Below, piece by piece: positions 4,877 through 39,059 of a stretch of 64,000 bases of DNA. Origin of the DNA: Candidatus Thorarchaeota archaeon. GTDB lineage: Archaea > Asgardarchaeota > Thorarchaeia > Thorarchaeales > Thorarchaeaceae. The DNA is taken from NCBI GenBank assembly GCA_029858305.1, contig JAOUFI010000003.1, positions 38,662 to 102,661 on the forward strand. The letters run 5' to 3'. Numbering within the stretch: position 1 is the stretch's first letter; each line of letters begins with the position of its first letter. The position numbers were made by a program, and so were the translations under genes. The notes beneath the pieces were generated by a model that was given only the letters and a program-made list of their open reading frames with translations, was not told the DNA's origin and did no database searches.

Positions 4877-6019
4877 TTATTTTGCCGAAAGAATTTCATG
4901 TGCTTTCTTTAGTTGCTCTATAATGTCAATACCTTGTGGACACTTCTCTAAGCACTCTCCACATTCTTCACACGCAGAAGCATCCTTTCCTTGAGCCCAT
5001 GGAGTTTTGCCAATCGTTGAATAATAGGATTTTGCCTTTGCCTGATCCCCATAGATCTGATAGCGTTGCAACGATTCAAAAATGAAGTTGATATTGACTT
5101 CATTTGGACAAGGTTGACAATACTTGCATTGAGTACAGACAAGGTCACACAACTCTTTGAATCTCTTTGCAATACCGTCAATTGATTTCTTTTCTGTCTT
5201 AGTTAGTACATTATAATCAGCACTCGAAGTGATGCTTAGGTTATCATTCAGCATATCGCCAGAGCCCATTCCTGATAGTGCAACTGAAACATTCGGATTA
5301 CTCAGAACAAACTTGAACGCCAAATCCACGTAATTCTCGCGTCCGGGTGTCAGCCACTCCTTCATTTCTTCTGGCAGATTTTTTCCTGCAAGACGCCCAC
5401 CACCTACAGATCCCATAGTCGCTACAGCTAGACCTTTTCTACCTGCATAATTGATCATCTCATGATTGACTTGGTCCACTATATTGTATTGCACAAGCAT
5501 TAGCTCAAAATACCCAGAGTCAATAATTTCTTTTAGAACTTCAGGCGTATCATGGAAGGAGAATCCTAGATGCTTTATTTTTCCATCCTCTTTTGCCTTC
5601 ATGGCGCGTTCCAGTAAATTGAGTCCCAGCACCTTCTCTTCAAACGTCTTTTTATTTAAGGCATGAAACAAATAGAAATCCACGCTCTCTTCATCTAATC
5701 GTTGAAGCTGTTCATCCAGATACTGATCAAAGTGCTCCTGCTTTGTGAACTCCTGCCGACCTACAGGGCATTTAGTTACCAGCGTGACACGTTCGCGATA
5801 CCCATCTTTTAATGCCATTCCCAAGACTACTTCGCTTTCACCACCGTGATAGGTCCAAGCAGTATCCACATACGTAATACCATTGTCAATTCCTTTTCGA
5901 ATTAGCTTAATAGCTTCTAGTCTATTGATTTTACCATCTTCAGTTATTGGAAGACGCATACAACCAAATCCAAGTGCTGATACTTTAGTTCCTAGTTTTC
6001 CCAGCATTCTATATTGCAT
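4877..6019 (-). CDS. Aldo/keto reductase family oxidoreductase with C-terminal 4Fe-4S domain
   Basis: LGFGCMRLP, YVDTAWTYH..SE, TK, GFSFHD; C-terminal CTQCKYCQPCP and CEECGECLEKCPQ. Confidence 0.9.
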   Translation of the reverse strand: MQYRMLGKLGTKVSALGFGCMRLPITEDGKINRLEAIKLIRKGIDNGITYVDTAWTYHGGESEVVLGMALKDGYRERVTLVTKCPVGRQEFTKQEHFDQYLDEQLQRLDEESVDFYLFHALNKKTFEEKVLGLNLLERAMKAKEDGKIKHLGFSFHDTPEVLKEIIDSGYFELMLVQYNIVDQVNHEMINYAGRKGLAVATMGSVGGGRLAGKNLPEEMKEWLTPGRENYVDLAFKFVLSNPNVSVALSGMGSGDMLNDNLSITSSADYNVLTKTEKKSIDGIAKRFKELCDLVCTQCKYCQPCPNEVNINFIFESLQRYQIYGDQAKAKSYYSTIGKTPWAQGKDASACEECGECLEKCPQGIDIIEQLKKAHEILSAK

Positions 6020-6278
6020 GTTTTTTCAACTCGCGAGATGTTTTTGCTATGCAACTTGCGCTTGTTAAATTCACGGTTTCTCGTGAGAGTTCATAATAAA
6101 CCCATCAAGATGTGAATTGAATTCAATTGCAAAAGAAGTCATTATCCAAACATCGAGCACCTCTTTTTAATTCTTGCCTGGACTGTTTCACAATACACAA
6201 TAAATGAAAACCAACAGATTTTATTTAGAGTAGGATATGAGTTGGATACCAAATCATCTGAGAAACACCTAATTTGGA

Positions 6279-6878
6279 ATGAGCTGCTTAGAATGGTTTG
6301 GTCATTGGAGGATTGAAAACGTGAGTCCTATAGAGATTCTTAGTGTGTTAGGCGCCTCTTTTCTCCTCTTCCGAATCTGGCTTGTTGAAATGAAGTTGCC
6401 TGATGAACTCCAATTTAGACGTAGATACTTCAGTCGTTTTTTCTCATATTATACAGGTTTCGCTCTCGTTTTTGGGCTTAGTTTCTATCCGTTTAATGTG
6501 ATGGTAATGATCGCCTTCCCAATTATACTTGTGACATCTATTTGGGACATCAACTTCTACCGCAGGTTCAAGACTCAGACATATTGGACCAAAAACCGTG
6601 CTTGGGTGTTAATTGAAAGACTCACTTTACACCCTCCTGTAGTCATAGTAGCTTTATTCATGATTTTTAATGATGCAAGAAATTACATCCAGCCCCCCAA
6701 TCTCCTCATGATGATAGTAAGTGCTCTTATCCTCTTTCTTCCATTCTTCCTACTTGATGCACGGTGGACACGACGTTACAAATGGCCTGAGGCTGTAATT
6801 GTAATTGGACTAATGGTCGCATCTGGTGCATCGTTACTACTTGCAGAAGCAATTCTTTGGGGTGTTCCATTTTGGTAG
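6279..6878 (+). CDS. Hypothetical multi-pass membrane protein (likely start GTG 6321)
   Basis: About 6 TM segments; GGAGGA upstream of GTG 6321; stop overlaps the start region of the next ORF. Confidence 0.6.
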   Translation: MSCLEWFGHWRIENVSPIEILSVLGASFLLFRIWLVEMKLPDELQFRRRYFSRFFSYYTGFALVFGLSFYPFNVMVMIAFPIILVTSIWDINFYRRFKTQTYWTKNRAWVLIERLTLHPPVVIVALFMIFNDARNYIQPPNLLMMIVSALILFLPFFLLDARWTRRYKWPEAVIVIGLMVASGASLLLAEAILWGVPFW

Positions 6879-8158
6879 CTGAAAGCCAAAAGACATCTGA
6901 TTCATTCTTGGAATACTTCAAGAAATCTCGGCTACTCAAAATTGGCCTTGCTTTCAATCTCATTTACTTTGTTGGTGCAATTTTTGGTTTGATTTACTTT
7001 TTCTTTGAGGGAACAGTTCTTGAAACTGTCTATACTGTAGACTTTCGTGTTTTCTATGAGGCTGGCCAAGTATTCATAAGCTCTCCAAGCGAAATCTACT
7101 CCGTTAATCCAAATGGATTGCCATTCAGATACTTCCCCTCATTTGCCGCATATATGGCTATATTCACAGGTATTCCATTACTAACACTCTACTTGATCAA
7201 CATCACGCTGATGATGATTTGTAATCTGGGCATAGTCTATTTTGTATATCAAGTGAGCCAACAAAAGGGAGTATCCACTTCCACAAAGAATTTTGAAAGA
7301 ACACTTCTCTTTGTTTTCATTGCACCTCAGCACATTGTCAATATCATGTTTGGACAAATCACACAGCTGGCTATACTTCTAGCATTGATCGTGCTGTTTC
7401 TATTGCAGTCTTCAAATCATGACTCGCTGGGGTGGTTTTTTGTTACAGGTATACTAATCGGACTAGCAGCAACCCTCAAACCTTTCTTTCTAGTATTCAT
7501 TCCTTTTATGGTTCCAATAACTGCAATGGACAGGGTACGTTTCAGTGTAGCTTTTAGACAATTAGTTGGAGTAGCTCTTGGATTCATGCTAGTAATGCTT
7601 CCAAATATTGTGTATTTCTTCACATACCCTTCCGCATTGGATGGTTTCATCAGAGTGAATCTTTTTGAAGATCTAACTGGTCAACACAGCACAAGCATTA
7701 CCAAACTAGTAATAGCCTTTGTACCATTCTCTGACACGAATCTATTACAAATTATTATTATTCTAATTTTAGGTGGGTTCCTATTCTTCAGAAGTTATGT
7801 CCGGTTTGTCAAGACTCCTCCCAATCAGAAAGATTATCTAAGACACTTTGTAGAGATGACATTTCTCATTCTTCTTGTCTATCCCGATTCATGGTTTCTC
7901 TTTCTTGCTATTTGGTATGCATTCTTGGCGCCATCAATGCTTCATCTATATAATTCTGATTCAGTTTCAGAAATGAATTTGCGGAAACTAGATTATCTAT
8001 GGTCAGGTGCAAACAATTTACTAGCTTTCTTTTCTATTGGGATTATTCTACATTACCTAATACTCGGATTTGACCCAATTATCCCAATATGGCTGACAAT
8101 CCTATTCATTCTATATGACCGTATCTCACAATTAGATACTATTTCTACAACTTCATAA
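6857..8158 (+). CDS. GT-C fold membrane glycosyltransferase, GT87/DUF2029 family (alpha-mannosyltransferase-like)
   Basis: DFRVFYEAG, PFRYFPSFA, GQIT, GLAATLKPF motifs typical of DUF2029; polytopic. Confidence 0.75.
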   Translation: MGCSILVAESQKTSDSFLEYFKKSRLLKIGLAFNLIYFVGAIFGLIYFFFEGTVLETVYTVDFRVFYEAGQVFISSPSEIYSVNPNGLPFRYFPSFAAYMAIFTGIPLLTLYLINITLMMICNLGIVYFVYQVSQQKGVSTSTKNFERTLLFVFIAPQHIVNIMFGQITQLAILLALIVLFLLQSSNHDSLGWFFVTGILIGLAATLKPFFLVFIPFMVPITAMDRVRFSVAFRQLVGVALGFMLVMLPNIVYFFTYPSALDGFIRVNLFEDLTGQHSTSITKLVIAFVPFSDTNLLQIIIILILGGFLFFRSYVRFVKTPPNQKDYLRHFVEMTFLILLVYPDSWFLFLAIWYAFLAPSMLHLYNSDSVSEMNLRKLDYLWSGANNLLAFFSIGIILHYLILGFDPIIPIWLTILFILYDRISQLDTISTTS

Positions 8159-8210: not shown

Positions 8211-9032
8211 ATGACCGAAGACATAAGCTTGGAGAACTCGTCTGGCTCACCGATTTCTTTTTCATATTTGAAAAAATTCAATATCTATGCCGGTGTTCTT
8301 CATCTAATAACTGGAATACTCATGCTATTCTTGGGTTTAAATTTGGAGTGGGAGCAGGATGTTTATGCCTTCTATCTCGATTTTCAAATACTTCCTGTTG
8401 ATCCATTCTTCGTAGTGCAACCGACACCTGTTGTCATATTCACACTTTCATACATCGGAGTGATTCTGGCATCATTCCCGTTAATGTCAGCTCTAGCTCA
8501 TTTCTTAATCGCGTTTCCACTGAAAGACAAGTATGTGGCAAATCTCCAGAAAGGTATGAACCCATACAGATGGTATGAGTATGCAGTATCAAGCTCAGTG
8601 ATGATTTTCCTGATCACATTCCTCTTGGGAATTTGGGATATATGGTCACTTGTGATGATTGTTGTTCTGAATGCTATGATGATTATGTTCGGATATCTAA
8701 TGGAGTATGTTAATCAGTATACAGAGAAAACTACCTGGAAACCTTTCATATTAGGATGCATTTCTGGTGGAACACCTTGGGTTGTCTTATTCGGATATTT
8801 CGCGGCCGCAATTAGTGCTGCAGAAACCAATCCTCCAACCTTTGTGTACATTATCATATTCATGTACCTAATCCTCTTCAACATCTTTGCACTGAATCAA
8901 TTCCTGCAATACAAACGAGTCAGTAAATGGAAAGACTATCTCTATGGAGAACGAATGTACATTATTCTAAGCTTGATTGCGAAAACTCTACTTGCATGGA
9001 TTGTTTTTGCTGGAATATTTGCACCATTCTAA
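8211..9032 (+). CDS. heR: Heliorhodopsin
   Basis: 7 TM; GVLHLITG and SALAHF histidines; NPYRWYEYAVSSSVM with counterion Glu; YLYGERMYIILSLIAKTLLAW with retinal-binding Lys. Confidence 0.93.
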   Translation: MTEDISLENSSGSPISFSYLKKFNIYAGVLHLITGILMLFLGLNLEWEQDVYAFYLDFQILPVDPFFVVQPTPVVIFTLSYIGVILASFPLMSALAHFLIAFPLKDKYVANLQKGMNPYRWYEYAVSSSVMIFLITFLLGIWDIWSLVMIVVLNAMMIMFGYLMEYVNQYTEKTTWKPFILGCISGGTPWVVLFGYFAAAISAAETNPPTFVYIIIFMYLILFNIFALNQFLQYKRVSKWKDYLYGERMYIILSLIAKTLLAWIVFAGIFAPF

Positions 9033-9287: not shown

Positions 9288-10343
9288 ATGATGAAGTACG
9301 CTATTCTTAACAAAGCGCTTCTTGGAATGGTACTACTATTGCTGGTATCATCCATAGTGGTTGTCAGTGCAACAACAACAACTGAGGATGAAACCACAGA
9401 GACTGAAACCACGACAGAAGACGAAACTACAACCTCTATCAACGATGATGATTCCAATGACCGTGAAGTGACCGTCATGACGACATCTACACATGCTGAA
9501 ATTGAATCAAAGCTTGAATCAGGAGGTACTGAAGACTCCTTCAAGATCGAAGTCGATGTTGGTGTTAACGGCGTTGAGTTCAAAATCGCATTTGAAGCTG
9601 AAACGGCAACAAATGAAACCGAAAGAGAGTTTGAGGTCGATTTCAGCCAGCTAGTTGAGTTCATTGATGAGAACAGCAATGGTGTCTATGATGATTCAGT
9701 AGATACTGATGTTCAGACACTAGAGCTGAATAGTTTTGAACCAATCGCATACACGACTGAGAACATTTCAGGGATCACCGTACATGTGTTTGATGTTTCA
9801 ACTACCGATGGCATCTTTGGTGCAAGGATTTATGCGACTGGAGATTTCACCAATATCAACGGCAGTCTCATTGCTCCTACTCAGGTGAAGATTGATGTGT
9901 TCATTCACGACTTCAATTTCACAGACGTGGATTCACAGCTCGCCTTGAAGGTGGAACTCAGTAGTGAGTTGGAAACCTCTTTCAATGACCAGACCGAGGA
10001 TGAAGAGGATGGGAGAGCCACCGATGAAGCAGCAGTTGACATTCTCATGACAGACACCAATGGTTTCTTCTCTTGGAAGGAATCTGCTGAAATCGATGGA
10101 ATCGCCCATCAGGTCAACTCTAGCATTCATGAAGTCTCAGCAACAGAACAAGAAATCTATCTGAACTACCCACAGGGTAGCGAGATAGTTCATGATCCTA
10201 AGATTGGTTTTGAGAATCTCCTTATCATGGGGGGGAATCCCTTGCCAATTGCGGACTTCATTGCTGACAACTTGCTTCCTATCTCCATTGGCCTTGCTAT
10301 TGTCGTTATTGGATTAGTTGTAGTGGCTAAGCGAAGGTCGTAG
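9288..10343 (+). CDS. Acidic secreted / cell-surface protein with C-terminal membrane anchor
   Basis: Signal peptide, T/E-rich repeat (TTTEDETT twice), D/E-rich beta-strand body, C-terminal TM + KRRS. Confidence 0.75.
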   Translation: MMKYAILNKALLGMVLLLLVSSIVVVSATTTTEDETTETETTTEDETTTSINDDDSNDREVTVMTTSTHAEIESKLESGGTEDSFKIEVDVGVNGVEFKIAFEAETATNETEREFEVDFSQLVEFIDENSNGVYDDSVDTDVQTLELNSFEPIAYTTENISGITVHVFDVSTTDGIFGARIYATGDFTNINGSLIAPTQVKIDVFIHDFNFTDVDSQLALKVELSSELETSFNDQTEDEEDGRATDEAAVDILMTDTNGFFSWKESAEIDGIAHQVNSSIHEVSATEQEIYLNYPQGSEIVHDPKIGFENLLIMGGNPLPIADFIADNLLPISIGLAIVVIGLVVVAKRRS

Positions 10344-10361: not shown

Positions 10362-10396
10362 GGAGAAGAGATAGAATCTCTTCTCCTAATTTTTTC
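10362..10396 (+). terminator. Hairpin + T-tract terminator between convergent genes
   Basis: GGAGAAGAGAT-AGA-ATCTCTTCTCC perfect 11-bp inverted repeat followed by TAATTTTTTT. Confidence 0.6.
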
Positions 10397-10404
10397 TATA
10401 AAGC

Positions 10405-12303
10405 CTAGATGATGCCGAAGTCATCCAATTCCGTGGTGGAATCCTGCTTCAGAGCCAATTGATATGCTGGTTGCATCATCTCAGCAGTACTCTTCTTTGT
10501 GAGCCTAAATGGCGCCTCCGTCTGCCGAATCAAGCCTCTCTCCACGAACTCCCTCATATCTATTGGTAGCCAGATTTCACTGAAGTGATCCTTTAGATCG
10601 TAGTGTGTAATCTCATCCTCTTTTTCGAGTAATCTCTTGACTGGTTCGATAAAGGTCTTCAAGTGTTCATCTAGGTAGCATTCCATCTTCTCCAAAACAG
10701 TTTCAACGAGGTCAAATGTTTTCTTTGGAGCATGAACAAACTCAGTGAATATTGAATTGAAGAATTCTGGATTGAACTCCAATGCTTGAGCAGTAGACTC
10801 TCGTAACGGAATTGCCCTATTCAGAAGAACCTCAATGTTTGCCATGCGACGTATTCCAGAGGTCATGAAGTTGAGTGCGAAGTGAGGGTCATCTTTTACA
10901 TCGAGCGCTTTGTATGCCTTGTTGATCAGGTCCTTGCAAAAGACATAGTTGAGCAATAACAAGTTCTCAAGGTCTCTGGAGCCTATGTTCTGGAGGTCTT
11001 CATAGAGATCATGAATCGTGTCATCTCTAGTGAACAGTAACGTACTCTTTGAGAAGTACGAATGGAAAATGCTTCCATCTCTTACTCTGTGAACCAATTT
11101 TCGAAAGGCATCTCGTGTGAAGAGATAGGTATCAACATAGACATCCTTCTCAACTAGCGCCTTGTAATGCTGATAGATGTCGTCTCTTGTAACAATAAGT
11201 ACATCGAGGTCTGACTTTTCCCAGACTGTATCGTAGGATAGACTTCCCGCGAGCATGAGTGAAAGGACATATTCATCAGTCTTCACCTTCTGCACTAATT
11301 CTTCAGCTGCCACTCTATAATCATCCTGTACTTGCTTGCGTTCCACCTTCGAAGGTCCAACTAGAGTTGGTATAACCTCATCAGGAAGGAACGACTTCCA
11401 ATTGAAGTGATACTGAGCCTCATTATACTCAACCACTCCTTTCTTGGTGATTTTAACTGGATTGATAGTCCGACGGAGAATTCGACGCCTGTGCAAGTGC
11501 TCAAGGTCTATGGTTTCCCAGCCACCCTGAGCGAATCTATCGTTTATCTCTGTCTGCGTAGCCGTACCTTCATTCTCGGAGATGAAGTCTAGTACAGGCT
11601 TGTAAATGTCAAGGTCAAGTGTATCAAGAAACTCATACGATTTCCTTAACGTTCGTTCAAGAGATTCGTGCGTCACTTTTGTATCAATGAAACCATCAAA
11701 AAGCTCGGGAAAGAGGTCTGGTTTGAGCTCCCTTCCTCGAAGGATGACTTCTCTGGGGGGGTAGATATCATTCAAGTAGCACAACAAGTATCCTAATTCG
11801 CTTAGGGCATGTATAAGAAAATGAAAACTGTGCGGGAGGTCTCTCTTGATATAGAGATACTTCTCTGACTTTGAGAGGTCGTATCGCACGGCAAGGTCGT
11901 ATCCCATCTGTTGTAGCTGACGGTCTCGTGTACCAACATTCTTGTTCAGGTTTTTGTAGAAATCAGTCAGTGAGCAATCTCGTGAGAAGACCAATTTACT
12001 ATATGTCAAGAATTGCAGCAGTCCAAGACCTCTTGGTGATTGAACATGTCGCATAAAGTCATCACGACTATAGATTTGCACGTCGATTGGAACTCCAAAT
12101 TCGACAAGTCTTGCTGTGCGGTGCTTTCCATCATCTGTTATGACGAAAGCATTTATGTTAGACCGCTCGGTGACCTCATCGTAAGCCATACTTCCGTAGA
12201 CGATGATTCCCAGGACGTGTGTGTCCTTCTTCGCTCGGGCGATGAAGCTTGACAAAGCATCATCGAACTGCTTCCGTACTTGCGGATCTTCCATCTGCAA
12301 CAA
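10405..12303 (-). CDS. Tandem-duplicated nucleotidyltransferase (Pol-beta superfamily) + helical + winged-helix protein, YgxA-like architecture (likely start ATG 12294)
   Basis: Two ~310-aa repeats: GIIVYGSMAYDEVTERSNINAFV and SLMLAGSLSYDTVWEKSDLDVLIV; both end in wHTH-like segments; AGGAG upstream of ATG 12294. Confidence 0.7.
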   Translation of the reverse strand: MLQMEDPQVRKQFDDALSSFIARAKKDTHVLGIIVYGSMAYDEVTERSNINAFVITDDGKHRTARLVEFGVPIDVQIYSRDDFMRHVQSPRGLGLLQFLTYSKLVFSRDCSLTDFYKNLNKNVGTRDRQLQQMGYDLAVRYDLSKSEKYLYIKRDLPHSFHFLIHALSELGYLLCYLNDIYPPREVILRGRELKPDLFPELFDGFIDTKVTHESLERTLRKSYEFLDTLDLDIYKPVLDFISENEGTATQTEINDRFAQGGWETIDLEHLHRRRILRRTINPVKITKKGVVEYNEAQYHFNWKSFLPDEVIPTLVGPSKVERKQVQDDYRVAAEELVQKVKTDEYVLSLMLAGSLSYDTVWEKSDLDVLIVTRDDIYQHYKALVEKDVYVDTYLFTRDAFRKLVHRVRDGSIFHSYFSKSTLLFTRDDTIHDLYEDLQNIGSRDLENLLLLNYVFCKDLINKAYKALDVKDDPHFALNFMTSGIRRMANIEVLLNRAIPLRESTAQALEFNPEFFNSIFTEFVHAPKKTFDLVETVLEKMECYLDEHLKTFIEPVKRLLEKEDEITHYDLKDHFSEIWLPIDMREFVERGLIRQTEAPFRLTKKSTAEMMQPAYQLALKQDSTTELDDFGII

Positions 12304-12312
12304 CTCCTACTC

Positions 12313-15144
12313 TCAGGAAGATACCACAACACTTTGGAGGAACTTGCCAGTGTAAGACTTCTCACACTTGATTATGTCTTCTACGGTGCCCTCCGCGATG
12401 ACCTCTCCACCTTCGGCTCCACCTTCAGGGCCAAGATCTATCACCCAGTCCGCGGACTTGATGATATCGAGGTGGTGTTCAATGACGATAACAGTGTTTC
12501 CCGCGTCCACAAGCCTATTGATGGTCTTCAGAAGCATCTGGATGTCCTGCATATGAAGACCCACACTGGGTTCATCCATAATGTACAGATTATCCTTCAG
12601 CTTCTTCAGTTTTCCAAGCTCCTTTGCAAGCTTGATTCTCTGGCTTTCGCCTCCTGACAAAGTTGGCGCAGGTTGTCCAAGTTTGAGGTATCCCAGCCCA
12701 AGCTCCATCATGGTCTTTGTCTTGTGTCGGATGAGTCGTACATCCTTGAAGAACTCGCAAGCCTCCTCAACACTCATGTTTAGGACATCTCCAATGTTCT
12801 TCCCATTGTACTTGATTTCAAGTACTTCTTCAGAGAAGCGAGCCCCCTTACACACGGGGCAGACAGTCTGTATATCGGGCATGTACTGCAATTCTATGCG
12901 AACAAGTCCCTCGCCGTTACACTCCACACATCGCCCTTCAGTAGAGTTATAGCTGAATCGCCCAATGCTGTATCCACGTTCCTGTGCCATCTTGGTGTGA
13001 GTATAGAGACTCCGTATCTTGTCAAAAAATCCAACATACGTTGCTGGCGTCGACCTTGAATGCCTTCCAATGGGTGACTGGTCCACAATCCTGACATCAG
13101 AGATATTCTCAATTCCTTCGAGTCTCTCGAGTTTTCCAGGGAGGATACGAGGGTCATTCATATCATGAAGGAGCTTGTTCCCAAGGACATCCTCGATCAA
13201 GGTGCTCTTGCCCGAACCGCTCACTCCGGTGATACAAATGAAGACACCGAGGGGGAACTCCACTGAGATATTCTTCAAGTTGTTCTCCGTGGCTCCAACA
13301 ACCTTCAGAGTCTTTCCATTCGGCGCTCGTGCTTTGCCGAGGTACGGAATGCTCTTCGTCCCAACGATATACTTTCCAGTCAAGAACTTGGGATTGTTGA
13401 GAATCTCTTCCAGCTGACCCTGAGCGACAATCTTCCCTCCGTGCAGACCAGGTCCAGGTCCTATCTCTATGATATTATCAGCCTGTTTGATAGTTGCAAG
13501 ATCGTGTTCAATAACTATCACAGTATTGCCCGTGTCCCTTAGGCGTTTCAGAATGTCCACTATTCGGTTACTATCTCTCATGTGGAGACCTATACTAGGT
13601 TCATCAAGCACGTACAGCATTCCCATTAGTTCAGAACCCAGTTGAGTCGAGAGCTTGATTCTCTGAGCCTCGCCCGCGCTTAGAGTCCTTGCTCGCCTGT
13701 TGAGTCGGAGGTAATAGAGACCAATGTCTATGAGGAGTTGGATACGTTTCCGCAACTCACCAATGACCTGATTCCCTGCCTTCTCTACATCTTTGGGGAC
13801 TTTTATGGAATCTGCAAACTCCAGTAACTGATTGATAAACAGCTCACCAAGTTCGTCGATATTCCTCCCATCCACAGTGACAAGGATTCTCTGCTTGATG
13901 AGCTTCTGTCCCTTACAGTCTGGACAGAGATGCTCTGCCATTATCTTCCTATACCACTCATAGTGTTCACCCTTCTTCCGGTCATGCTTGTAGAACCTGT
14001 CAATATAATTGCAGACACCCATGTACCGGACCTTCTTTCCCACATCACGATGCCTGTATTTGTTAGGCCAATCCGGAGGCTCTTGAAGTATGAACTCCTC
14101 CTTGATACCCCATAGTATCTGATGCTGAATATCCTCTGGAAGTTCTCCAAACGGAGTGTCCATATCGAACCCCAAATGCTGGCTAACGCTGTACATCCAA
14201 TACTTGGCATACCACGCAAGAGCCCCGTGTTTCAGGCTCTTCTTTGGGTCAACGATGATAAGCCTAGACTCCGCCTTCAGGAGTGTACCAACACCAAGAC
14301 AAGTGGGACAGGCATTCTCTGGCAAGTTTGCTGAGAATGCTCCAGGAAGAAGTTTGTGCATAATGATATGATGGTCTTTACACCCAAAGCCCTTGTAGAA
14401 CTTCTCCAATACATCATCAGTGACATTTTCATCTAGTTCGAACCGGATGAATCCGCTACCAACATTCTTAGCGTTCTCTATAGAAATCGCAAATTGATGA
14501 TACAAGTCTTGCTTAATGATGATTCTATCGACAAGAACCTCAATCCGATAGTCTTTGTCCTCATCCAGCTCTATCTTGTCATTGATGCTGAATGGTTCAC
14601 CATCGATTCGAATCCGTTTGTACCCTTTTTGTCGTATCTCATCGAACAGGTAAGGATAGTCCTCATCATAGAACTTGTTCACTGGAGCAAGAATCTCAAC
14701 ACTTGTCCCCTCAGGTAAAGTCATGAGGTGATCAACAATTTGGTTTGCATTACGTGTGTGGACCTTCCTATTGCAGTAAGGACAATGAGCTTGCCCTAGA
14801 ACTGAGAAGAGAATTCTCATGTAGCTTGAGATATCAGTCATTGTCGATACAGTAGACCTTGGATTAAGAGTCCCAGTCTTTTGTTCGATTGCGACGACTG
14901 GTGACAATCCAATGATGGAGTCTACATCAGCACGCTCTAGCATGGGCAACATGGTTCGAGAAGTTGCTGACATTGATTCGAAGAACCTGCGCTGCGCTTC
15001 ACTGAAAATAACGTCAAAAGCTAGCGAAGTTTTTCCCGACCCCGATAAACCCGTGATGACGGTCAGTTTATCGCGGGGGATATCCACATCGATATTTTGT
15101 AGATTATTTGTCCTAGCACCCTTTACACTAATGTATTCTCTCAT
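12313..15144 (-). CDS. uvrA: UvrA-family excinuclease ATPase (divergent, no uvrB/uvrC nearby)
   Basis: [40 protein letters not shown]; second [32 protein letters not shown]; three Zn modules. Confidence 0.92.
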
Positions 15145-15332
15145 TCATTCATGCCTCCCTACATCAGTTCAACCCAGTGCCTCCCTATGACAGGTTACAA
15201 CGACCCTATGAGAGTTATCGGGCCTGATGATAGCTTGAGGTTTCTCACGATATGAGAAAGTGTTCTGAGCGGGACTCGAATCGTATTTAGAAGGTTCGAT
15301 TTCAGCAGGATATTCGAATAATTAAAAGGAGG

Positions 15333-15362
15333 AAGTCAATGAGTGTTGACTTATTGGTCAAG
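15333..15362. promoter_or_regulatory. Putative operator: alternating GTCAA/TTGAC half-sites
   Basis: AAGTCAA-N6-TTGACTT and overlapping TTGAC-N6-GTCAA, half-sites every 11 bp, between divergent uvrA and the ArsR-like gene. Confidence 0.35.
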
Positions 15363-15408
15363 TACCGTAGGATTATATCTCTCTAAAACAAGTCATTCCT
15401 GATGAACA

Positions 15409-15861
15409 ATGACTTCTGATGAAGTGTTTGAAGCAATATCGCACCCGATGAGAATTGCTATTCTGAAGGAATTGGCTAAGAAACCAATTCGATTTGCTGA
15501 TCTCAAACGGAAATTAAGAATCAAGAGTGGCGGACTCTTGGACTTTCATCTCAAGAAAATGGAGGCAGTAATAATCACTGATAAGGACGGGCTCTACACA
15601 CTGAATAATCGAGGATTCGCTGCTCTTCGTGCAGTTCACATTGTTACAAATTATGGCTGGCAGAGAAGATCATGGTGGCTTAATGTATTGATGATGTTTA
15701 TGCTTAACATCTACTTCTTCTTTACAGCGTTTGAATTTTACATCTTTGTAGCAATTCCGACATTTGGTTGGCTTCTTTTCTATAGTTACTGGACCTTTGT
15801 GAAGCGAAGAGTTAGTCTAAGAAGTAATGGTGCAGACCAAGAAAATGTGGAGGTATCATGA
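15409..15861 (+). CDS. ArsR-family winged-helix regulator with two C-terminal TM helices
   Basis: VFEAISHPMRIAILKEL...FADLKRKL...LDFHLKKM...YTLN, then two hydrophobic helices. Confidence 0.75.
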   Translation: MTSDEVFEAISHPMRIAILKELAKKPIRFADLKRKLRIKSGGLLDFHLKKMEAVIITDKDGLYTLNNRGFAALRAVHIVTNYGWQRRSWWLNVLMMFMLNIYFFFTAFEFYIFVAIPTFGWLLFYSYWTFVKRRVSLRSNGADQENVEVS

Positions 15862-15932
15862 TTTGAAATTTTGGCGTTGTTGTGAAATAATATATTCATT
15901 CTGTCGAAAAAATTTGTACTCGAAGGAGAATC

Positions 15933-16718
15933 TTGAATTTGGTAGCTGTCAGTGTTGAGAGACTTGTAAAATCGTTTGGAAGTCTGGTAGCAGTAAATAA
16001 TGTCACGTTCGAAGTACGCGAGGGTGAAATCTATGGATTACTTGGACCTAATGGGGCAGGCAAAACGACGACAATAAAGTGCCTAATGGGACTCTTGGAT
16101 CCTGATAGTGGTTCAACCCATATTTACCATGTGAATTCTCTAGAGAATCCAATTGAGGCCAAGAAACTTGTAGGCTATGTGCCCGAAGAGCACCAGCTCT
16201 ATGACTCACTGACTCCGCGTGAACTGTTCGAATTCATTGCTTCAATTAGACAACTTCCTAAAGATAAAACTAACAAACGCATTGGAGAGATGGTGAAAGC
16301 ACTCGATTTCGAGAAGTATTATGATTCAATGATTGTGACACTCTCGCAGGGGAACAAACAGAAGACAATGCTAATCTCTGCTTTACTTCATGCGCCAAAG
16401 CTCCTTATTCTTGACGAACCATTCTCGGGACTTGATGTAAGGACATCTAAGATAATCAAAGACATCATCCAGATTCATGTGGACAATGGAGGCTCCGTTC
16501 TTCTGTCTACGCATGTCATGGAAGTCGCTCAGGGACTTTGTGATCGAGTAGGGATTATTGACGATGGCGTATTGGTAGGTGAGGGAACACTATCTGAACT
16601 CAGAGCTCAGGCAAAAGAAGAGAGTGCTACTCTTGAGAAATTATTCCTCCGCCTTACAGAGCAGGAAGAGGAGGTCCAGGTCGGTGTCGATGCTCTTCGG
16701 GAGGCACTCTCAGAATGA
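15933..16718 (+). CDS. ABC-2 type transporter ATP-binding protein
   Basis: GPNGAGKTT, LSQGNKQK, LILDEPFSGLD, STH. Confidence 0.92.
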   Translation: MNLVAVSVERLVKSFGSLVAVNNVTFEVREGEIYGLLGPNGAGKTTTIKCLMGLLDPDSGSTHIYHVNSLENPIEAKKLVGYVPEEHQLYDSLTPRELFEFIASIRQLPKDKTNKRIGEMVKALDFEKYYDSMIVTLSQGNKQKTMLISALLHAPKLLILDEPFSGLDVRTSKIIKDIIQIHVDNGGSVLLSTHVMEVAQGLCDRVGIIDDGVLVGEGTLSELRAQAKEESATLEKLFLRLTEQEEEVQVGVDALREALSE

Positions 16719-18358
16719 ACTTCAGAGAGCGCTGGAGATTAGCAGGCATCATTGCACTACAGATGAGATTCGATGGGTTTCTCAAGAACAATCCTGGAAA
16801 TATGGCTCGGATAAAGGAAAATCCTGAGAAAATCTCGAGAAGTATTCGATCTTCAAGCAGGGTGAACAGCATTCTGAGTGTCTTCATGATTATCATGTTG
16901 GCAGCACTCACTATTGGTGTCACTGGTTTCGATGCCTCAATTGGAGACCTCAATGTCCGACTTGCTGTAGGATTTTCATTCTTCATGGTTCTTGCCTTTG
17001 TCTTAATTTTCCTCCTAAATCTCACAACTACAACTGGATTCTTTACATCCGGGGCTATGAAATTGCCAAGTATTTTACCTCTTAGTAGAAAGGAACTTGA
17101 GAGCCTTGCAGTACTTGCATTTACACGCGTCTTCATTGCTCCAGCTATCCTCACCGTTACATTGTTCCCAGCGGCGTGTTTTGTTCTATTTGGGCCATTA
17201 GCAGGTTTTGTTGCGCTTATTGGATGTCTTGCCACGGTCTCAGTATCTCTACGTTCGTTGATTGGGTTCTCACGATGGTTCGAAACCAAGATGCTCTCAT
17301 CAGATGAGTCGAAGATTGGGACTATAGTGAGGATAGCAGCCACTATAGGGCTTGTTGTTGGAATCATGAGTGTCTATATGCTGTCCAGCTACATCCCGTA
17401 TATTGTTCAAGGAGTTATCATGTTCGCAGAATCTTTCAATGGAACATACTTGGTGCTCTCAGTCCTTTTTCCATTCTCATTTGGTTTCTTAGCCTCAGCT
17501 GTGACGCCAGGAGTAACTTTTCAAGATTTGATGATTCCTTTGGTTTCAGGGGGTATGTCCCTCCTATATGGTTTGATTGCATTAGTATTCTATAGACAAA
17601 GCGGAAAATTGCTAAGGGGTCTTGCTATTGGAGGAGTTTCAACAGGAAGAACTGGGCCACTGAGAGAAATTAGCATCGAAACGCGAACGCCCATAATAGC
17701 AGTAATTCGAAAAGATTTGAAGATGGCTACAAAGAGTGTTGGATCAGCAATCGTCTATGCAATTCCAATCTTTCTGATGATCATGTTGTATCCAATGATA
17801 AGAGGGATGTCACAAGACGGGCCGCTCCACAGCATCACTGCAATGACTGCGATAGCATATGCTAATCTCTTTGGGGGACTAACCGTGGTCTCAGTGATGA
17901 TGTTTGATACACAAGGGGCGTCTATTCATGAGGGATTGCCCCTGAGTTCAAGACTAGTCCTTAAAGGAAAAACTGCAATCTCTATCATTCCATACACCAT
18001 GACAATGCTGTTTATCGCCCTCTTGCTCTCTTTGTTTAATCCAATTACACCACTTGTCATCCTTATACCAATTTTAGCTATACCACTCGGATATGCAGTA
18101 CCGATGTCTGTCGGAGCAGCCATGTATCGCTACAAGGGAGGTGGTCGTGCTGTAGCTATCAATCTAGCTGCTGACCAAAAAATGGCGTTGATCGCAGGAT
18201 TTGTAGGAGCAGTTGTAGGACTTGGGCCTCTTCTCGGATTTGGGATTGTCATGATAATGACAGGTTCACAGATTTTCAGTTTAGCAACTCAAGCACTTGT
18301 CACATTTGGCATCGTTTTAATGGCACATTTCCAGATTCCAAAGCTCCTCAAGGATTGA
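16715..18358 (+). CDS. ABC-2 type permease (archaeal large permease)
   Basis: ATGA overlap with the ATPase; about 12-14 TM; IRKDLK motif mid-protein. Confidence 0.75.
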   Translation: MNFRERWRLAGIIALQMRFDGFLKNNPGNMARIKENPEKISRSIRSSSRVNSILSVFMIIMLAALTIGVTGFDASIGDLNVRLAVGFSFFMVLAFVLIFLLNLTTTTGFFTSGAMKLPSILPLSRKELESLAVLAFTRVFIAPAILTVTLFPAACFVLFGPLAGFVALIGCLATVSVSLRSLIGFSRWFETKMLSSDESKIGTIVRIAATIGLVVGIMSVYMLSSYIPYIVQGVIMFAESFNGTYLVLSVLFPFSFGFLASAVTPGVTFQDLMIPLVSGGMSLLYGLIALVFYRQSGKLLRGLAIGGVSTGRTGPLREISIETRTPIIAVIRKDLKMATKSVGSAIVYAIPIFLMIMLYPMIRGMSQDGPLHSITAMTAIAYANLFGGLTVVSVMMFDTQGASIHEGLPLSSRLVLKGKTAISIIPYTMTMLFIALLLSLFNPITPLVILIPILAIPLGYAVPMSVGAAMYRYKGGGRAVAINLAADQKMALIAGFVGAVVGLGPLLGFGIVMIMTGSQIFSLATQALVTFGIVLMAHFQIPKLLKD

Positions 18359-37532: not shown

Positions 37533-39059
37533 TCATTTAAGTGATTCAAAACGTGTGGATCCTCGAATGATCTTTTTCAGAGTCACAATAAGATTGTCCT
37601 TGTGGATTCTAACCTGCTCCATTGAGTCGCGGTCGCGAATAGTGACTGTACCATCTTCCAATGTCGTATAATCGATTGTGATACAGAAGGGTGTACCAAT
37701 CTCATCCTGACGCCTGTACCTCCGACCTATTGAACCTCCCACATCAAATTGTGCGACGAAACCAGCCTCCATGACCGATTCGAATATCTCACGAGAGGGT
37801 ACAAGTAGTTCATCCTTCCCCATGAGAGGGAACACGGCAATCTGTATGGGAGCAACCTCGGGAGGGAATTTGAGCCAGTCTGTGTCACGAATCTCACTCT
37901 CAGGTTGGAAAGAATTATCAAGTAGGCAAAATAGTGGCCTCTCGATACCGAAAGCAATCTCAAGCACATTTGGTACTACAGGTTGCTTGTTCACGCTTAC
38001 ACTTAGTTTTTCCTTCGAGAACTCCTGATGGCGAGTAAGATCGTAATTACCACGGTCGTGAATACCGCAACATTCTACCCAACCAAAACTCTCCGTATGC
38101 ACTTCTACATCCCATGCATCTTTCGCATAATGTGCTCGTTCTGTGGGGAAGTGCTGTCTAAGTCGCAGCTTCTCTTCGGAAAATCCCATGTTCTTGAAGA
38201 TGGAATATGTGAGGTGGACGCACCAGGCATATGCAGGGTTCTGAAAGTGACCTTTCCTAATTGCTTCTGACATCTTCATCTTCAGAGGTTTACTGTCACC
38301 TTTTTGCTGGGTCTGGTATGGTAGCAGCGGGAGTACATCGTTCTTGATATCTTCAAACTGTGGCCAGTTCTTCTCATCCTCTTCAAGAATAAAGATCTGG
38401 CCTTCGGTTTGCGTGAATTCGCGTAGACGGAGCATACCCTGCCTTGGTGAGATTTCATTTCGGTACGCCTTGCCAATCTGAAAAACAGACATTGGAAGTT
38501 TGTCTCTAAAGAAAGTCAGAAAACGTCGAAAGAGCAGATATGTCGTAGTCGCGGTCTCTGGTCGGAGATAGGCTTCCTGATCTAGACCAAGCCGAGTCTT
38601 CAGCATGAGGTTGAATGATTCAACCGCACCCAGTGGACTTTTGCATGAAGGACATGTGATTTTGTGGGTTTTGATAATCTCGGTTAATTCATCAATTGAT
38701 TTTCCTGAAATTTTGGTGCCCTGTAATTGTTCCTCAATAAGATTATCAGCTCGGTAGATCTGTTCGCACTTAGTGCATTGTGTTATTGGATCAATAAATC
38801 CATCCAAGTGACCCGATGCCTTCCAGACCATTGCTGGAGACACGGTTGGACATTCTACCTCCCAGAAGTTCGCACGAACAAAAGAGGCACGAATTTGATT
38901 CTCAAGTCGATTCTTCAGAAGTTTTCCAAGTGGACCCAGGTCGAAGAATCCAGAGCTGCCACCATATATCTCAGGGCTAGGACCCCAGAAGAATCCACGT
39001 TTCTTTGCCAAGCCAGTGATAATCTCATTAAAGTCTCGCTCTGAACTCATTGTACTCAA
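37533..39059 (-). CDS. glyS: Glycyl-tRNA synthetase (archaeal/eukaryotic dimeric type)
   Basis: YLRPETA, GKAYRNEISPRQGMLRLREFTQ, AHYA, GSIGRRYRRQDEIGTP. Confidence 0.96.
   Translation of the reverse strand: MSTMSSERDFNEIITGLAKKRGFFWGPSPEIYGGSSGFFDLGPLGKLLKNRLENQIRASFVRANFWEVECPTVSPAMVWKASGHLDGFIDPITQCTKCEQIYRADNLIEEQLQGTKISGKSIDELTEIIKTHKITCPSCKSPLGAVESFNLMLKTRLGLDQEAYLRPETATTTYLLFRRFLTFFRDKLPMSVFQIGKAYRNEISPRQGMLRLREFTQTEGQIFILEEDEKNWPQFEDIKNDVLPLLPYQTQQKGDSKPLKMKMSEAIRKGHFQNPAYAWCVHLTYSIFKNMGFSEEKLRLRQHFPTERAHYAKDAWDVEVHTESFGWVECCGIHDRGNYDLTRHQEFSKEKLSVSVNKQPVVPNVLEIAFGIERPLFCLLDNSFQPESEIRDTDWLKFPPEVAPIQIAVFPLMGKDELLVPSREIFESVMEAGFVAQFDVGGSIGRRYRRQDEIGTPFCITIDYTTLEDGTVTIRDRDSMEQVRIHKDNLIVTLKKIIRGSTRFESLK

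Follow-up and report, generated by a model that had tools for sequence, protein, structure and literature searches.

UvrA is among the best-studied sensors of DNA damage, yet apart from the drug self-resistance conferred by class II members, little is settled, to our knowledge, about what its paralogues do. Here we describe a pair of genes, a uvrA paralogue followed by a gene for a tandem nucleotidyltransferase (NTase), in a 64,000-nt stretch of DNA from a Candidatus Thorarchaeota archaeon (the window, i.e. the whole stretch that was analysed; positions 38,662 to 102,661 of contig JAOUFI010000003.1, assembly GCA_029858305.1). The pairing of these two genes is far beyond chance, and the window UvrA falls in a distinct clade, apart from the canonical UvrAs that its members' genomes also carry.

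Much of the architecture of the window UvrA is shared with class I UvrA of the UvrABC system, such as length, domain order, UvrB-binding and insertion domains, both ATPase sites, and three Zn modules. It differs from class I in its separate clade (Shimodaira-Hasegawa-like approximate likelihood ratio test, SH-aLRT, 100), in 11 signature residues, in not lying beside uvrB, and in having an NTase gene as partner. Class IIa UvrAs (DrrC, Ecm16, and Deinococcus radiodurans UvrA2; PDB 2vf7 and 7sh1) are likewise extra paralogues with an accessory role, but the window UvrA possesses both the first zinc finger and the UvrB-binding domain, and we know of no NTase partner described for class IIa. Both of these domains are lacking in class IIa proteins according to the available text of PMC9328131, where Ecm16 is also described to protect against a DNA bis-intercalator independently of nucleotide excision repair (NER). 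A further likeness is offered by the uvrA-PG1037-pcrA operon of Porphyromonas gingivalis, in which, as far as the accessible part of PMC3747172 describes it, a second UvrA paralogue (42% identical to the NER copy) is co-transcribed with a partner of no assigned function and needed for stress resistance. There, however, the partner PG1037 is a SWIM zinc-finger protein and the third gene encodes a PcrA helicase, neither of which occurs at the loci studied here. No paper on a UvrA-NTase pair was found in a literature search judged by titles and abstracts, with subscription journals largely outside its reach; in PMC3710099, UvrA occurs only in the reference list.

For the partner protein, the ANT(4')/KNTase enzymes (1kny, 6un8; also LinB 3jyy, ANT(6), and AadA) share the NTase domain, the helical bundle, and the GS...DxD motif, with 236-242 of 253 residues aligned. 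Active sites of the ANT(4') dimer are composed across two units, and the pairing of the two fused units in the window protein is consistent with this architecture. The differences comprise the low identity (10-12%), a winged helix-turn-helix (wHTH) domain added to each unit, the fusion of the units, one degenerate site, and the co-encoding with UvrA. Membership in the ANT(4') sequence family was rejected, as none of the NCBIfam ANT models matched the window protein; on one bacterial homologue the ANT(9) model reached a sub-threshold 18.8 against 340. The best fold match, wHTH included, is PDB 3c18 from Exiguobacterium sibiricum, a YgxA-like 'nucleotidyltransferase-like protein' from structural genomics that is 14-16% identical to the window protein and has neither the DxD motif nor the glutamate-lysine (E-K) pair of the helical domain. 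The YgxA-like family PF22339 did not match the window protein, and relatives score weakly (18.6-27.1 against a cut-off of 27). Two other NTase systems were rejected: MntA of the HEPN-MNT type VII toxin-antitoxin (NF047752, 16.5 against 60; no HEPN gene among the conserved neighbours) and HalB of Hailong (NF051895, 22.3 against 190; resemblance in fold only, with Z 10 and rmsd 6.7, and no conserved third gene).

The uvrA paralogue and the NTase gene form one operon, which comprises the following parts.

12313..15144, minus strand: uvrA paralogue (943 aa) of class-I architecture, member of the NTase-linked UvrA clade
12295..12312, minus strand: intergenic spacer of 18 nt with a GGAG ribosome-binding site, as read from the sequence
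10405..12294, minus strand: tandem NTase + helical + wHTH gene (629 aa), ATG at 12294, stop at 10405-10407
11350..12294, minus strand: repeat 1 of the NTase protein, with a degenerate metal site (GS...SNIN), a helical domain carrying the E-K pair, and a basic wHTH
10408..11349, minus strand: repeat 2 of the NTase protein, with GS...SDLD and the third Glu intact, the helical-domain Glu of E-K gone, and a wHTH

The NTase gene was delimited mechanically as an open reading frame (ORF) at 10405-12303 on the minus strand with a TTG start, but seventy-odd homologues begin with MEDP, so the ATG at 12294 is taken as the real start. The TGA of uvrA is 18 nt from this ATG, with GTAGGAG upstream of it. 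At Thorarchaeota (Thor) loci the tblastn match to uvrA ends about 20 nt from where the NTase match starts; spacings computed from the over-extended mechanical ORF starts span -170 to +14 nt. The first-pass annotation, made from the letters alone, had described a full-length but divergent uvrA with UvrB-binding region, Zn modules and an LSAGE signature, an NTase gene of two NTase + helical + wHTH repeats less than 20 nt downstream with a ribosome site, a position opposite in strand to both neighbours, a strong hairpin at the end, a GC content above that of the 6-9 kb region, and the absence of uvrB and uvrC from the 64 kb. This description held throughout, as detailed for each feature below.

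There is clear evidence that the pair is conserved. A pattern scan with one genome per GTDB species yielded 339 confirmed NTase loci, and the best 80 of them were analysed. A same-strand UvrA match was found in 62/80, with more than 300 aa aligned inside the retrieved locus in 61/80. Linkage was complete in Asgard (14/14), Bacillota (24/24), Armatimonadota, Gemmatimonadota, and Planctomycetota (2/2 each), as well as Acidobacteriota and Bacteroidota (1/1 each), and lower in Chloroflexota (4/6), Poribacteria (9/25), and other bacteria (2/3); genomes with an unlinked NTase still hold both genes. The nearest NTase-to-uvrA gaps range from overlap to about 920 nt, with 1664 nt in one Heimdallarchaeota (Heimdall) locus with a broken uvrA (L025). 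Of the 23 measured Bacillota loci, 22 have gaps of -4 to +9 nt, with an ATGA overlap in Paenibacillus lycopersici, and the remaining one (L036) has 243 nt. When the neighbouring ORFs of the 80 loci were clustered, only NTase (76 loci) and UvrA (59 loci) spanned phyla, and no third conserved gene was seen among them. The Thor/Heimdall lineage and bacteria have the two genes in opposite order but still side by side.

A second sample, not conditioned on the NTase, was obtained by searching 301 sampled Asgard genomes with the window UvrA at E<=1e-300. This gave 32 places in 30 genomes, and the NTase adjoins 30 of the 31 clade UvrA places outside the genome of the window (26 from the NTase search and four more by profile search). 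NTase matches on short or edge contigs were left unassessed for UvrA (G130, G188, G242, G256, G293, G152:C59, G272:C86, and G277:C34). The 31 places fall into two groups: 13 are 77-85% identical to the window UvrA and have a tandem NTase downstream, while 18 are 51-55% identical and have a single-unit NTase upstream, i.e. in bacterial order. Three Asgard genomes carry both forms. Because these groups differ in identity, NTase form and gene order, two acquisitions of the module by Asgard are suggested. The NTase was found in 30/301 Asgard genomes, 6/24 of the genus of the window, and 13/76 of its family, which is an accessory pattern, with the incompleteness of metagenome-assembled genomes (MAGs) applying. 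In L025 (3897-7843), all that is left of uvrA is two pieces, 343 and 75 aa long, and the NTase gene is split.

The window UvrA scores 1090.5 bits with TIGR00630 (cut-off 729.8) and 1130.8 with NF001503, below its cut-off of 1147, and can therefore be described as full-length but somewhat divergent. It contains the UvrB-interaction domain PF17760 (3.6e-25, residues 133-236) and the insertion/DNA-binding domain PF17755 (3.2e-14). The first nucleotide-binding domain carries the signature LSAGE, and Walker A/B, the second signature, and the Zn modules are all present, leaving both ATPase sites intact. Residues 2-940 align to the class I structures 9gxk, 3zqj, and 2r6f (887-950 bits), whereas for 2vf7 and 7sh1, of class II, the alignment does not begin before residue 269 or 278. 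An assignment to class II is ruled out by these alignment limits together with the UvrB-binding domain and first zinc finger. In identity, the window UvrA is closer to NTase-linked bacterial UvrAs (46-54%) than to the two other UvrAs of its own genome (41.8% and 42.8%).

A tree was computed with the quick mode of IQ-TREE (LG+G4, 965 columns, 73 full-length rows). Its input was restricted to ORFs between 880 and 1120 aa long and aligned over 900 residues or more; duplicates were removed, and fragments, fused double UvrAs, and copies resembling class II were excluded. In it, 57 NTase-linked and two unlinked rows form one branch (SH-aLRT 100, stem 0.58), with the other 14 rows outside, among them the other two UvrAs of the window genome. 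The two unlinked rows come from genomes with an NTase elsewhere. At a threshold of >=90% in each group, eleven columns tell the clade and canonical UvrA apart (D104, E161, H258, L470, I474, S499, M509, E560, P565, L752, and L815), for example a CxxH instead of CxxC Zn module at 255-258, E161 for Gly, and P565 for Ala; per-domain conservation is the same in both. The 14 Asgard rows (SH-aLRT 100) are nested in a larger group of 38 rows (99) that also holds Paenibacillus and a Eubacteriales MAG. We read the Asgard module UvrA as a probable transfer from a Bacillota-like donor, a reading limited by the root and the small canonical sample (12 rows).

The host is an Asgard (Thorarchaeota-like) MAG of 3.04 Mb and 88.9% completeness, with the window on contig C148; the closest NTase homologues are labelled Thorarchaeota, Heimdallarchaeota, Hermodarchaeota or 'Asgard group'. 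Three full-length UvrA matches occur in this genome and the window copy is the third uvrA. The contig of the window contains neither uvrB nor uvrC; both lie on contig C32 (C32:39657-54029), where uvrB is followed by two tandem full-length uvrA genes (TIGR00630 1321 and 1263 bits) and, 5 kb further, uvrC. Likewise, in 15/15 other module genomes another UvrA match scores higher on TIGR00630 (905-1500 bits, some of these matches being fragments at contig ends) than the linked copy (1095-1217 bits). A uvrB gene is present in 11 of the 13 module-bearing Asgard genomes searched, a count that needs a background rate to bear on dependence on uvrB; the two genomes without a uvrB match are 93% complete, which argues neither way. 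As side observations, the two C32 copies sit on different branches of the UvrA tree, and their counterparts in some bacteria (G003, G008, G009, and G014) are fused UvrA ORFs of about 1870-2000 aa. In other Thor/Asgard genomes, two partial UvrA-like halves of 500-560 bits each share one ORF of about 1640 aa (L102/L105 in G005, L144/L147 in G013, and L146/L149/L152 in G012); the genome of the window yielded no such ORF.

The only Pfam match in the NTase protein is PF18765 (Pol-beta-type NTase), in two stretches, and the two NTase + helical + wHTH repeats are visible both in the alignment and in the AlphaFold2 model (predicted local distance difference test, pLDDT, 91; predicted template modelling score, pTM, 0.89; 51-row alignment). 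With Foldseek and VIA-align, the best structural match was 3c18 (Z 17.8, 276 residues aligned), covering residues 328-617 of the model, i.e. a whole unit including the wHTH. A search of PDB sequences with the family profile retrieved only 3c18 as well (E 6e-8). The ANT(4')/KNTase structures follow (6un8_B, Z 14.7, rmsd 3.4, 241 aligned; 1kny, Z 14.3; Foldseek E 4.6e-9), and repeat 1 (model 6-315) matches ANT(4')-IIb 4ebj with Z 12.2. Further matches to the NTase fold are LinB (Z 11.3), HalB, and MntA (7bxo, Z 8.4), and the wHTH of repeat 2 (model 549-618) matches MecI 1okr (Z 7.1, rmsd 1.7). The family is small: of 1.84 billion cluster representatives, 951 match it at E<=1e-3 and 151 at E<=1e-30, most of them about 300-320 aa long.

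Catalytic motifs were tabulated for 35 single-unit and 34 tandem proteins among 78 clustered ORFs, with nine of odd length excluded. Single units keep GS, DxD, the third Glu, and the helical E-K pair in 32/35 cases, and a bacterial single unit presumably acts as a homodimer. In the Asgard tandems, repeat 1 has NxN with the helix E-K kept (10/10), and repeat 2 has DxD (8/10) or DxG (2/10) with the Glu of E-K gone (10/10); the window protein accordingly reads SNIN in repeat 1 and GS...SDLD...E385 in repeat 2. Given the architecture of ANT(4') and this motif pattern, the Asgard tandem appears to keep exactly one composite site, built from the NTase domain of repeat 2 and the helix of repeat 1 with its pair E147/K148, while both halves of the other site have decayed. 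The Poribacteria tandems show the opposite, with repeat 1 intact (24/24) and repeat 2 without GS and DxD (24/24). In a tree of units, Asgard repeats 1 and 2 are sisters (96) and stand apart from all bacterial units (96), on long branches, and the Asgard and Poribacteria fusions are thus likely to be independent. One Eubacteriales MAG (L036) has two separate single-unit NTase genes (6001-6903 and 7060-7962) before a clade uvrA, an arrangement that possibly resembles an unfused intermediate or heterodimer stage.

Upstream of the pair and at its end, three further features were recognised.

15142..15262, minus strand: structured 5' leader, a candidate cis-regulatory RNA by covariance model, in which CCUC pairs with the Shine-Dalgarno (SD) sequence GAGG of uvrA
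15283..15292, minus strand: TATA-like box, putative promoter, a conserved column block about 21-30 nt upstream of the leader
10362..10386, minus strand: perfect hairpin with an 11-bp stem and a 3-nt loop (-16.8 kcal/mol), 18 nt past the NTase stop

When the 260 nt upstream of uvrA were aligned for ten Thor loci, about 120 nt ending at the start codon were strongly conserved. RNAalifold folds them into a 5' hairpin (UCUCA...UGAGA), a helix of the invariant CCUC with the ribosome-binding GAGG, and a long stem whose apex varies. With the ten Thor leaders as its only input, a covariance model matches 5/5 held-out Heimdall loci (L021-L025) directly upstream of uvrA (E 1.7e-11 to 2.4e-7), including the decayed L025, where the leader is still detectable (E 2.4e-7). 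The model finds exactly one copy in the window genome, none at the canonical uvrA/uvrB loci, and none in five bacterial module loci. In the 15-sequence alignment, which was fitted to the model and therefore favours structure, 89.6% of cells pair, compared to 82.3% after shuffling (0/500) and 37-48% with partners slid, and the covariation score is 0.274 against 0.146 shuffled (0/500). Double changes occur in 5/6 and 4/4 pairs of helices 4 and 5. Rfam gave 0 matches at E<=1 over window 15100-15420. We read the leader as a likely translational control element that sequesters the SD sequence of uvrA; because its apex is variable, a classical riboswitch aptamer is less likely than a protein- or temperature-responsive hairpin. 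The TATA-like column block reads ATGTATATAC in Thor loci and TTCTAAATAC in the window, and by this resemblance might act as promoter.

Both flanking genes (9288-10343 and 15409-15861) are on the plus strand, opposite to the pair, and the hairpin at 10362-10386 sits between convergent genes, where it may serve as terminator. GC content is 0.466 in uvrA and 0.440 in the NTase gene, compared to 0.421 in the window and 0.380 in the 6-10 kb region; the value of uvrA is reached by only 2.3% of 2832-bp windows. A recent acquisition, as the GC excess of uvrA could indicate, is not favoured given that the pair is common to Thor and Heimdall. A heliorhodopsin gene lies 1.4 kb from the module (8211-9032, plus strand; PF18761, 4.8e-90) and was rejected as functional partner, as it is not near the pair in 14 other Asgard loci. 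Divergent from uvrA, positions 15409-18358 on the plus strand contain a DUF7347 gene, an ABC ATPase gene, and a gene for a 547-aa protein without Pfam match. DUF7347 is beside uvrA also in L013 and L015, followed in L015 by the ABC ATPase and 547-aa genes; at the other Asgard loci none of the three adjoins the pair.

Taken together, we tentatively read the pair, with less than even confidence, as a conserved, horizontally transferred two-gene accessory module that stands outside housekeeping NER and forms a genotoxin or DNA-damage response complex with a catalytic NTase. A UvrA dimer would recognise distorted DNA, be it a lesion or a DNA-bound genotoxin, and an NTase-wHTH dimer would be recruited via the signature-I, UvrB-binding, and insertion region of UvrA. 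The NTase might then nucleotidylate a small-molecule genotoxin, in the way that ANT and Lnu enzymes treat antibiotics, and/or use its DNA-binding domains to pass the signal on to transcription. In Asgard, the structured leader sequestering the ribosome-binding site would add translational control of the operon. In its boldest form the proposal is one of a new DNA-surveillance machine, distinct from UvrABC, in which ABC-ATPase sensing of a distorted duplex is coupled directly to nucleotidyl transfer on a DNA-bound drug, adduct or protein, in some lineages with sigma output, after at least two passages between bacteria and Asgard and gated by the leader in the latter; this form seems possible but doubtful to us.

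The first-pass annotation had proposed an undescribed module for damage sensing, resistance or defence. What stands of this is the two-gene unit, now seen across domains (61/80 starting from NTase, 30/31 starting from UvrA), a UvrA apart from the housekeeping copies, with two other uvrA beside uvrB plus a uvrC in the genome, and an NTase with the fold of antibiotic nucleotidyltransferases (ANT(4')/KNTase) and catalytic motifs kept. The contrary case it had named, an only uvrA that groups with canonical ones next to an NTase gene by unconserved adjacency, is at odds with a third uvrA in its own clade and a conserved adjacency. The defence part found no support, as there was no PADLOC system match, no conserved third gene, and no phage or defence neighbour in 53 proteins.

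A physical complex was modelled from NTase residues 4-618 and UvrA residues 125-505 (the UvrB-binding, insertion, and signature-I region) alongside three controls. The interface score ipSAE was 0.50, 0.73, and 0.58 (median 0.58), while the best of the three controls had 0.00, for a verdict of 'weak support'. The mark used was reached by 116/157 solved complexes and 2/215 mismatches, counts that apply here only roughly because the prediction was run on our own alignments. At least 72% of contacts are common to the runs, and pLDDT of the partners is at least 76; no interface was reported. Given the strong genomic prior, we see modest support for an NTase-UvrA complex.

Several observations weigh against the reading as a genotoxin-response module. 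The score of 0.58 falls in the band up to 0.60, reached by only 18/157 solved complexes and by both passing mismatches, which the tool rates as more often wrong than right without a strong prior. NTase-UvrA fusion proteins were sought among longer proteins and none were found, which is weak evidence; ORFs of 1100-1314 aa (L060, L069, and others) considered as fusions turned out to have over-extended N-termini in a frame other than that of the NTase. The closest match among structures, 3c18, is itself an uncharacterised protein, without the catalytic DxD and E-K residues in the alignment of hidden Markov models. Only 11 columns strictly discriminate clade from canonical UvrA, and the UvrB-binding domain is equally conserved (0.61 in the clade and 0.60 in canonical UvrA); the window UvrA may simply feed ordinary UvrBC repair. 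The NTase is unlinked to UvrA in 16/25 Poribacteria loci, and one Asgard clade UvrA (G311, 81% complete) was found without an NTase. Most of the 53 neighbouring proteins scanned belong to unrelated metabolism. Some neighbours do hint at small-molecule handling and so speak for the reading, as do the regulator fusions described below, but the resistance-like ones are single-locus anecdotes without statistics: an APH-family kinase and two glyoxalase/bleomycin-resistance-family proteins directly upstream of the module in P. psychroresistens, MatE, MFS, and GNAT with ABC-2 adjoining it in other single loci, and a carboxylesterase gene 6 nt upstream of NTase in a Planctomycetota MAG (L071). In Heimdall loci, an alpha/beta hydrolase gene (PF00561, 1.9e-18; L021 5164-6000, also G205:C196) lies between uvrA and NTase with stop and start abutting, which is a further hint of this kind.

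Enzyme-repressors such as BirA and NadR offer the model for another explanation, added by the regulator fusions described here and not considered in the first-pass annotation. The NTase-wHTH protein would mainly be a damage-responsive transcription switch, a one-component regulator of the uvrA paralogue and other genes whose DNA binding is modulated by UvrA or a ligand in the pocket, with no xenobiotic modified. Every unit ends in a wHTH with the conserved wing motif LTxKS...E.AY, and that of repeat 1 in the window holds a very basic helix (HRRRILRR). Moreover, extracytoplasmic function (ECF) sigma-70 regions r2+r4 precede a complete NTase unit in three representatives (P0073, P0088, and P0091; one member of a sigma-NTase cluster is labelled Caldilineaceae sigma factor) and an AraC HTH is fused to one in P0098. 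The sigma-NTase gene is followed by UvrA in the metagenome contigs L156, L158, L159, and L166, in L158 with a PNPOx-like gene in between and a UvrA that has 11/11 clade signature residues. In L155 and L160 it is followed instead by SDR, RibD_C, transglutaminase-like, and dienelactone-hydrolase genes, resembling a regulator whose targets vary. Through such fusions the NTase unit is connected with transcriptional output and small-molecule enzymes, though as anecdotes without statistics. Against a purely regulatory role, all of them retain the catalytic as well as the wing motifs, the GS/DxD/Glu and E-K residues are conserved in the single units (32/35), and the tandems have retained a single complete site, a sign of selection on catalysis. 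Translational coupling of the ATGA type in Bacillota suggests stoichiometric co-production, and what is conserved upstream of the pair in Asgard is an RNA structure. We therefore regard the switch as unlikely, if still a serious contender to the genotoxin-response module.

A further explanation is catalysis on a macromolecule. The NTase could AMPylate UvrA, UvrB or another repair protein, or add nucleotides to DNA ends or lesions flagged by UvrA, as an excision-repair branch handing over to UvrB/UvrC. This agrees with a UvrB-binding domain that is retained and as conserved as the canonical one, with uvrB in 11/13 module-bearing Asgard genomes, and with the weak predicted contact to the accessory domains of UvrA (0.58; best control 0.00), and relatives in fold include MntA (7bxo, Z 8.4), which AMPylates proteins, and HalB (Z 10), which synthesises DNA. 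However, among characterised enzymes it is transferases acting on small molecules that match best (ANT(4'), Z 14.3-14.7; LinB, Z 11.3), the NCBIfam scores for MntA (16.5 vs 60) and HalB (22.3 vs 190) are far under their cut-offs, and no nuclease, ligase or polymerase is conserved near the pair among the clustered neighbours of the 80 loci. We hold a macromolecular target to be unlikely, to much the same degree as the switch.

Anti-phage defence, with the UvrA-like ATPase sensing foreign or modified DNA and the NTase making a nucleotide signal, is improbable. It would suit the patchy distribution and horizontal transfer, the fold shared with HalB of Hailong, and the match of the C-terminal half of UvrA to mad3 (1.3e-77) and mad8 of PADLOC; the latter arises because MADS contains UvrA-like ATPases. 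However, PADLOC-DB 2.0 gave no system-level match for the pair and only weak PDC-S09/MNT-like matches for the NTase. Only two genes are conserved, with no effector gene, and no phage, integrase or defence genes were present among the 53 neighbouring proteins scanned in 11 bacterial loci, which lie among ordinary metabolic genes. That the adjacency is meaningless, a redundant repair paralogue beside an unrelated NTase gene as the unlinked loci in Poribacteria (16/25) and Chloroflexota (2/6) could be taken to indicate, is highly improbable in view of 30/31 adjacent places in the UvrA-first test, an adjacency that survives inverted order, independent NTase duplications, and cross-domain transfer, unlinked genomes that still hold both genes, and the joint decay of both genes in L025.

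The module adds a third kind of UvrA, a full-length clade defined by an obligate enzyme partner and found in Asgard and at least eight bacterial phyla. The tandem NTase is a clean natural case of the transition from homodimer to fused pseudodimer, which happened twice with opposite halves inactivated, and the conserved leader is a candidate for a new cis-regulatory RNA in Asgard archaea. Since the hosts include culturable Paenibacillus, the module is directly testable. According to the available text of PMC10413001, uvrA-like genes already serve as a genome-mining marker. If the NTase acts on DNA-bound genotoxins, the module would represent a new resistance mechanism and provide such a marker of its own, and if it signals to sigma factors, it would constitute a LexA-independent route from DNA damage to transcription.

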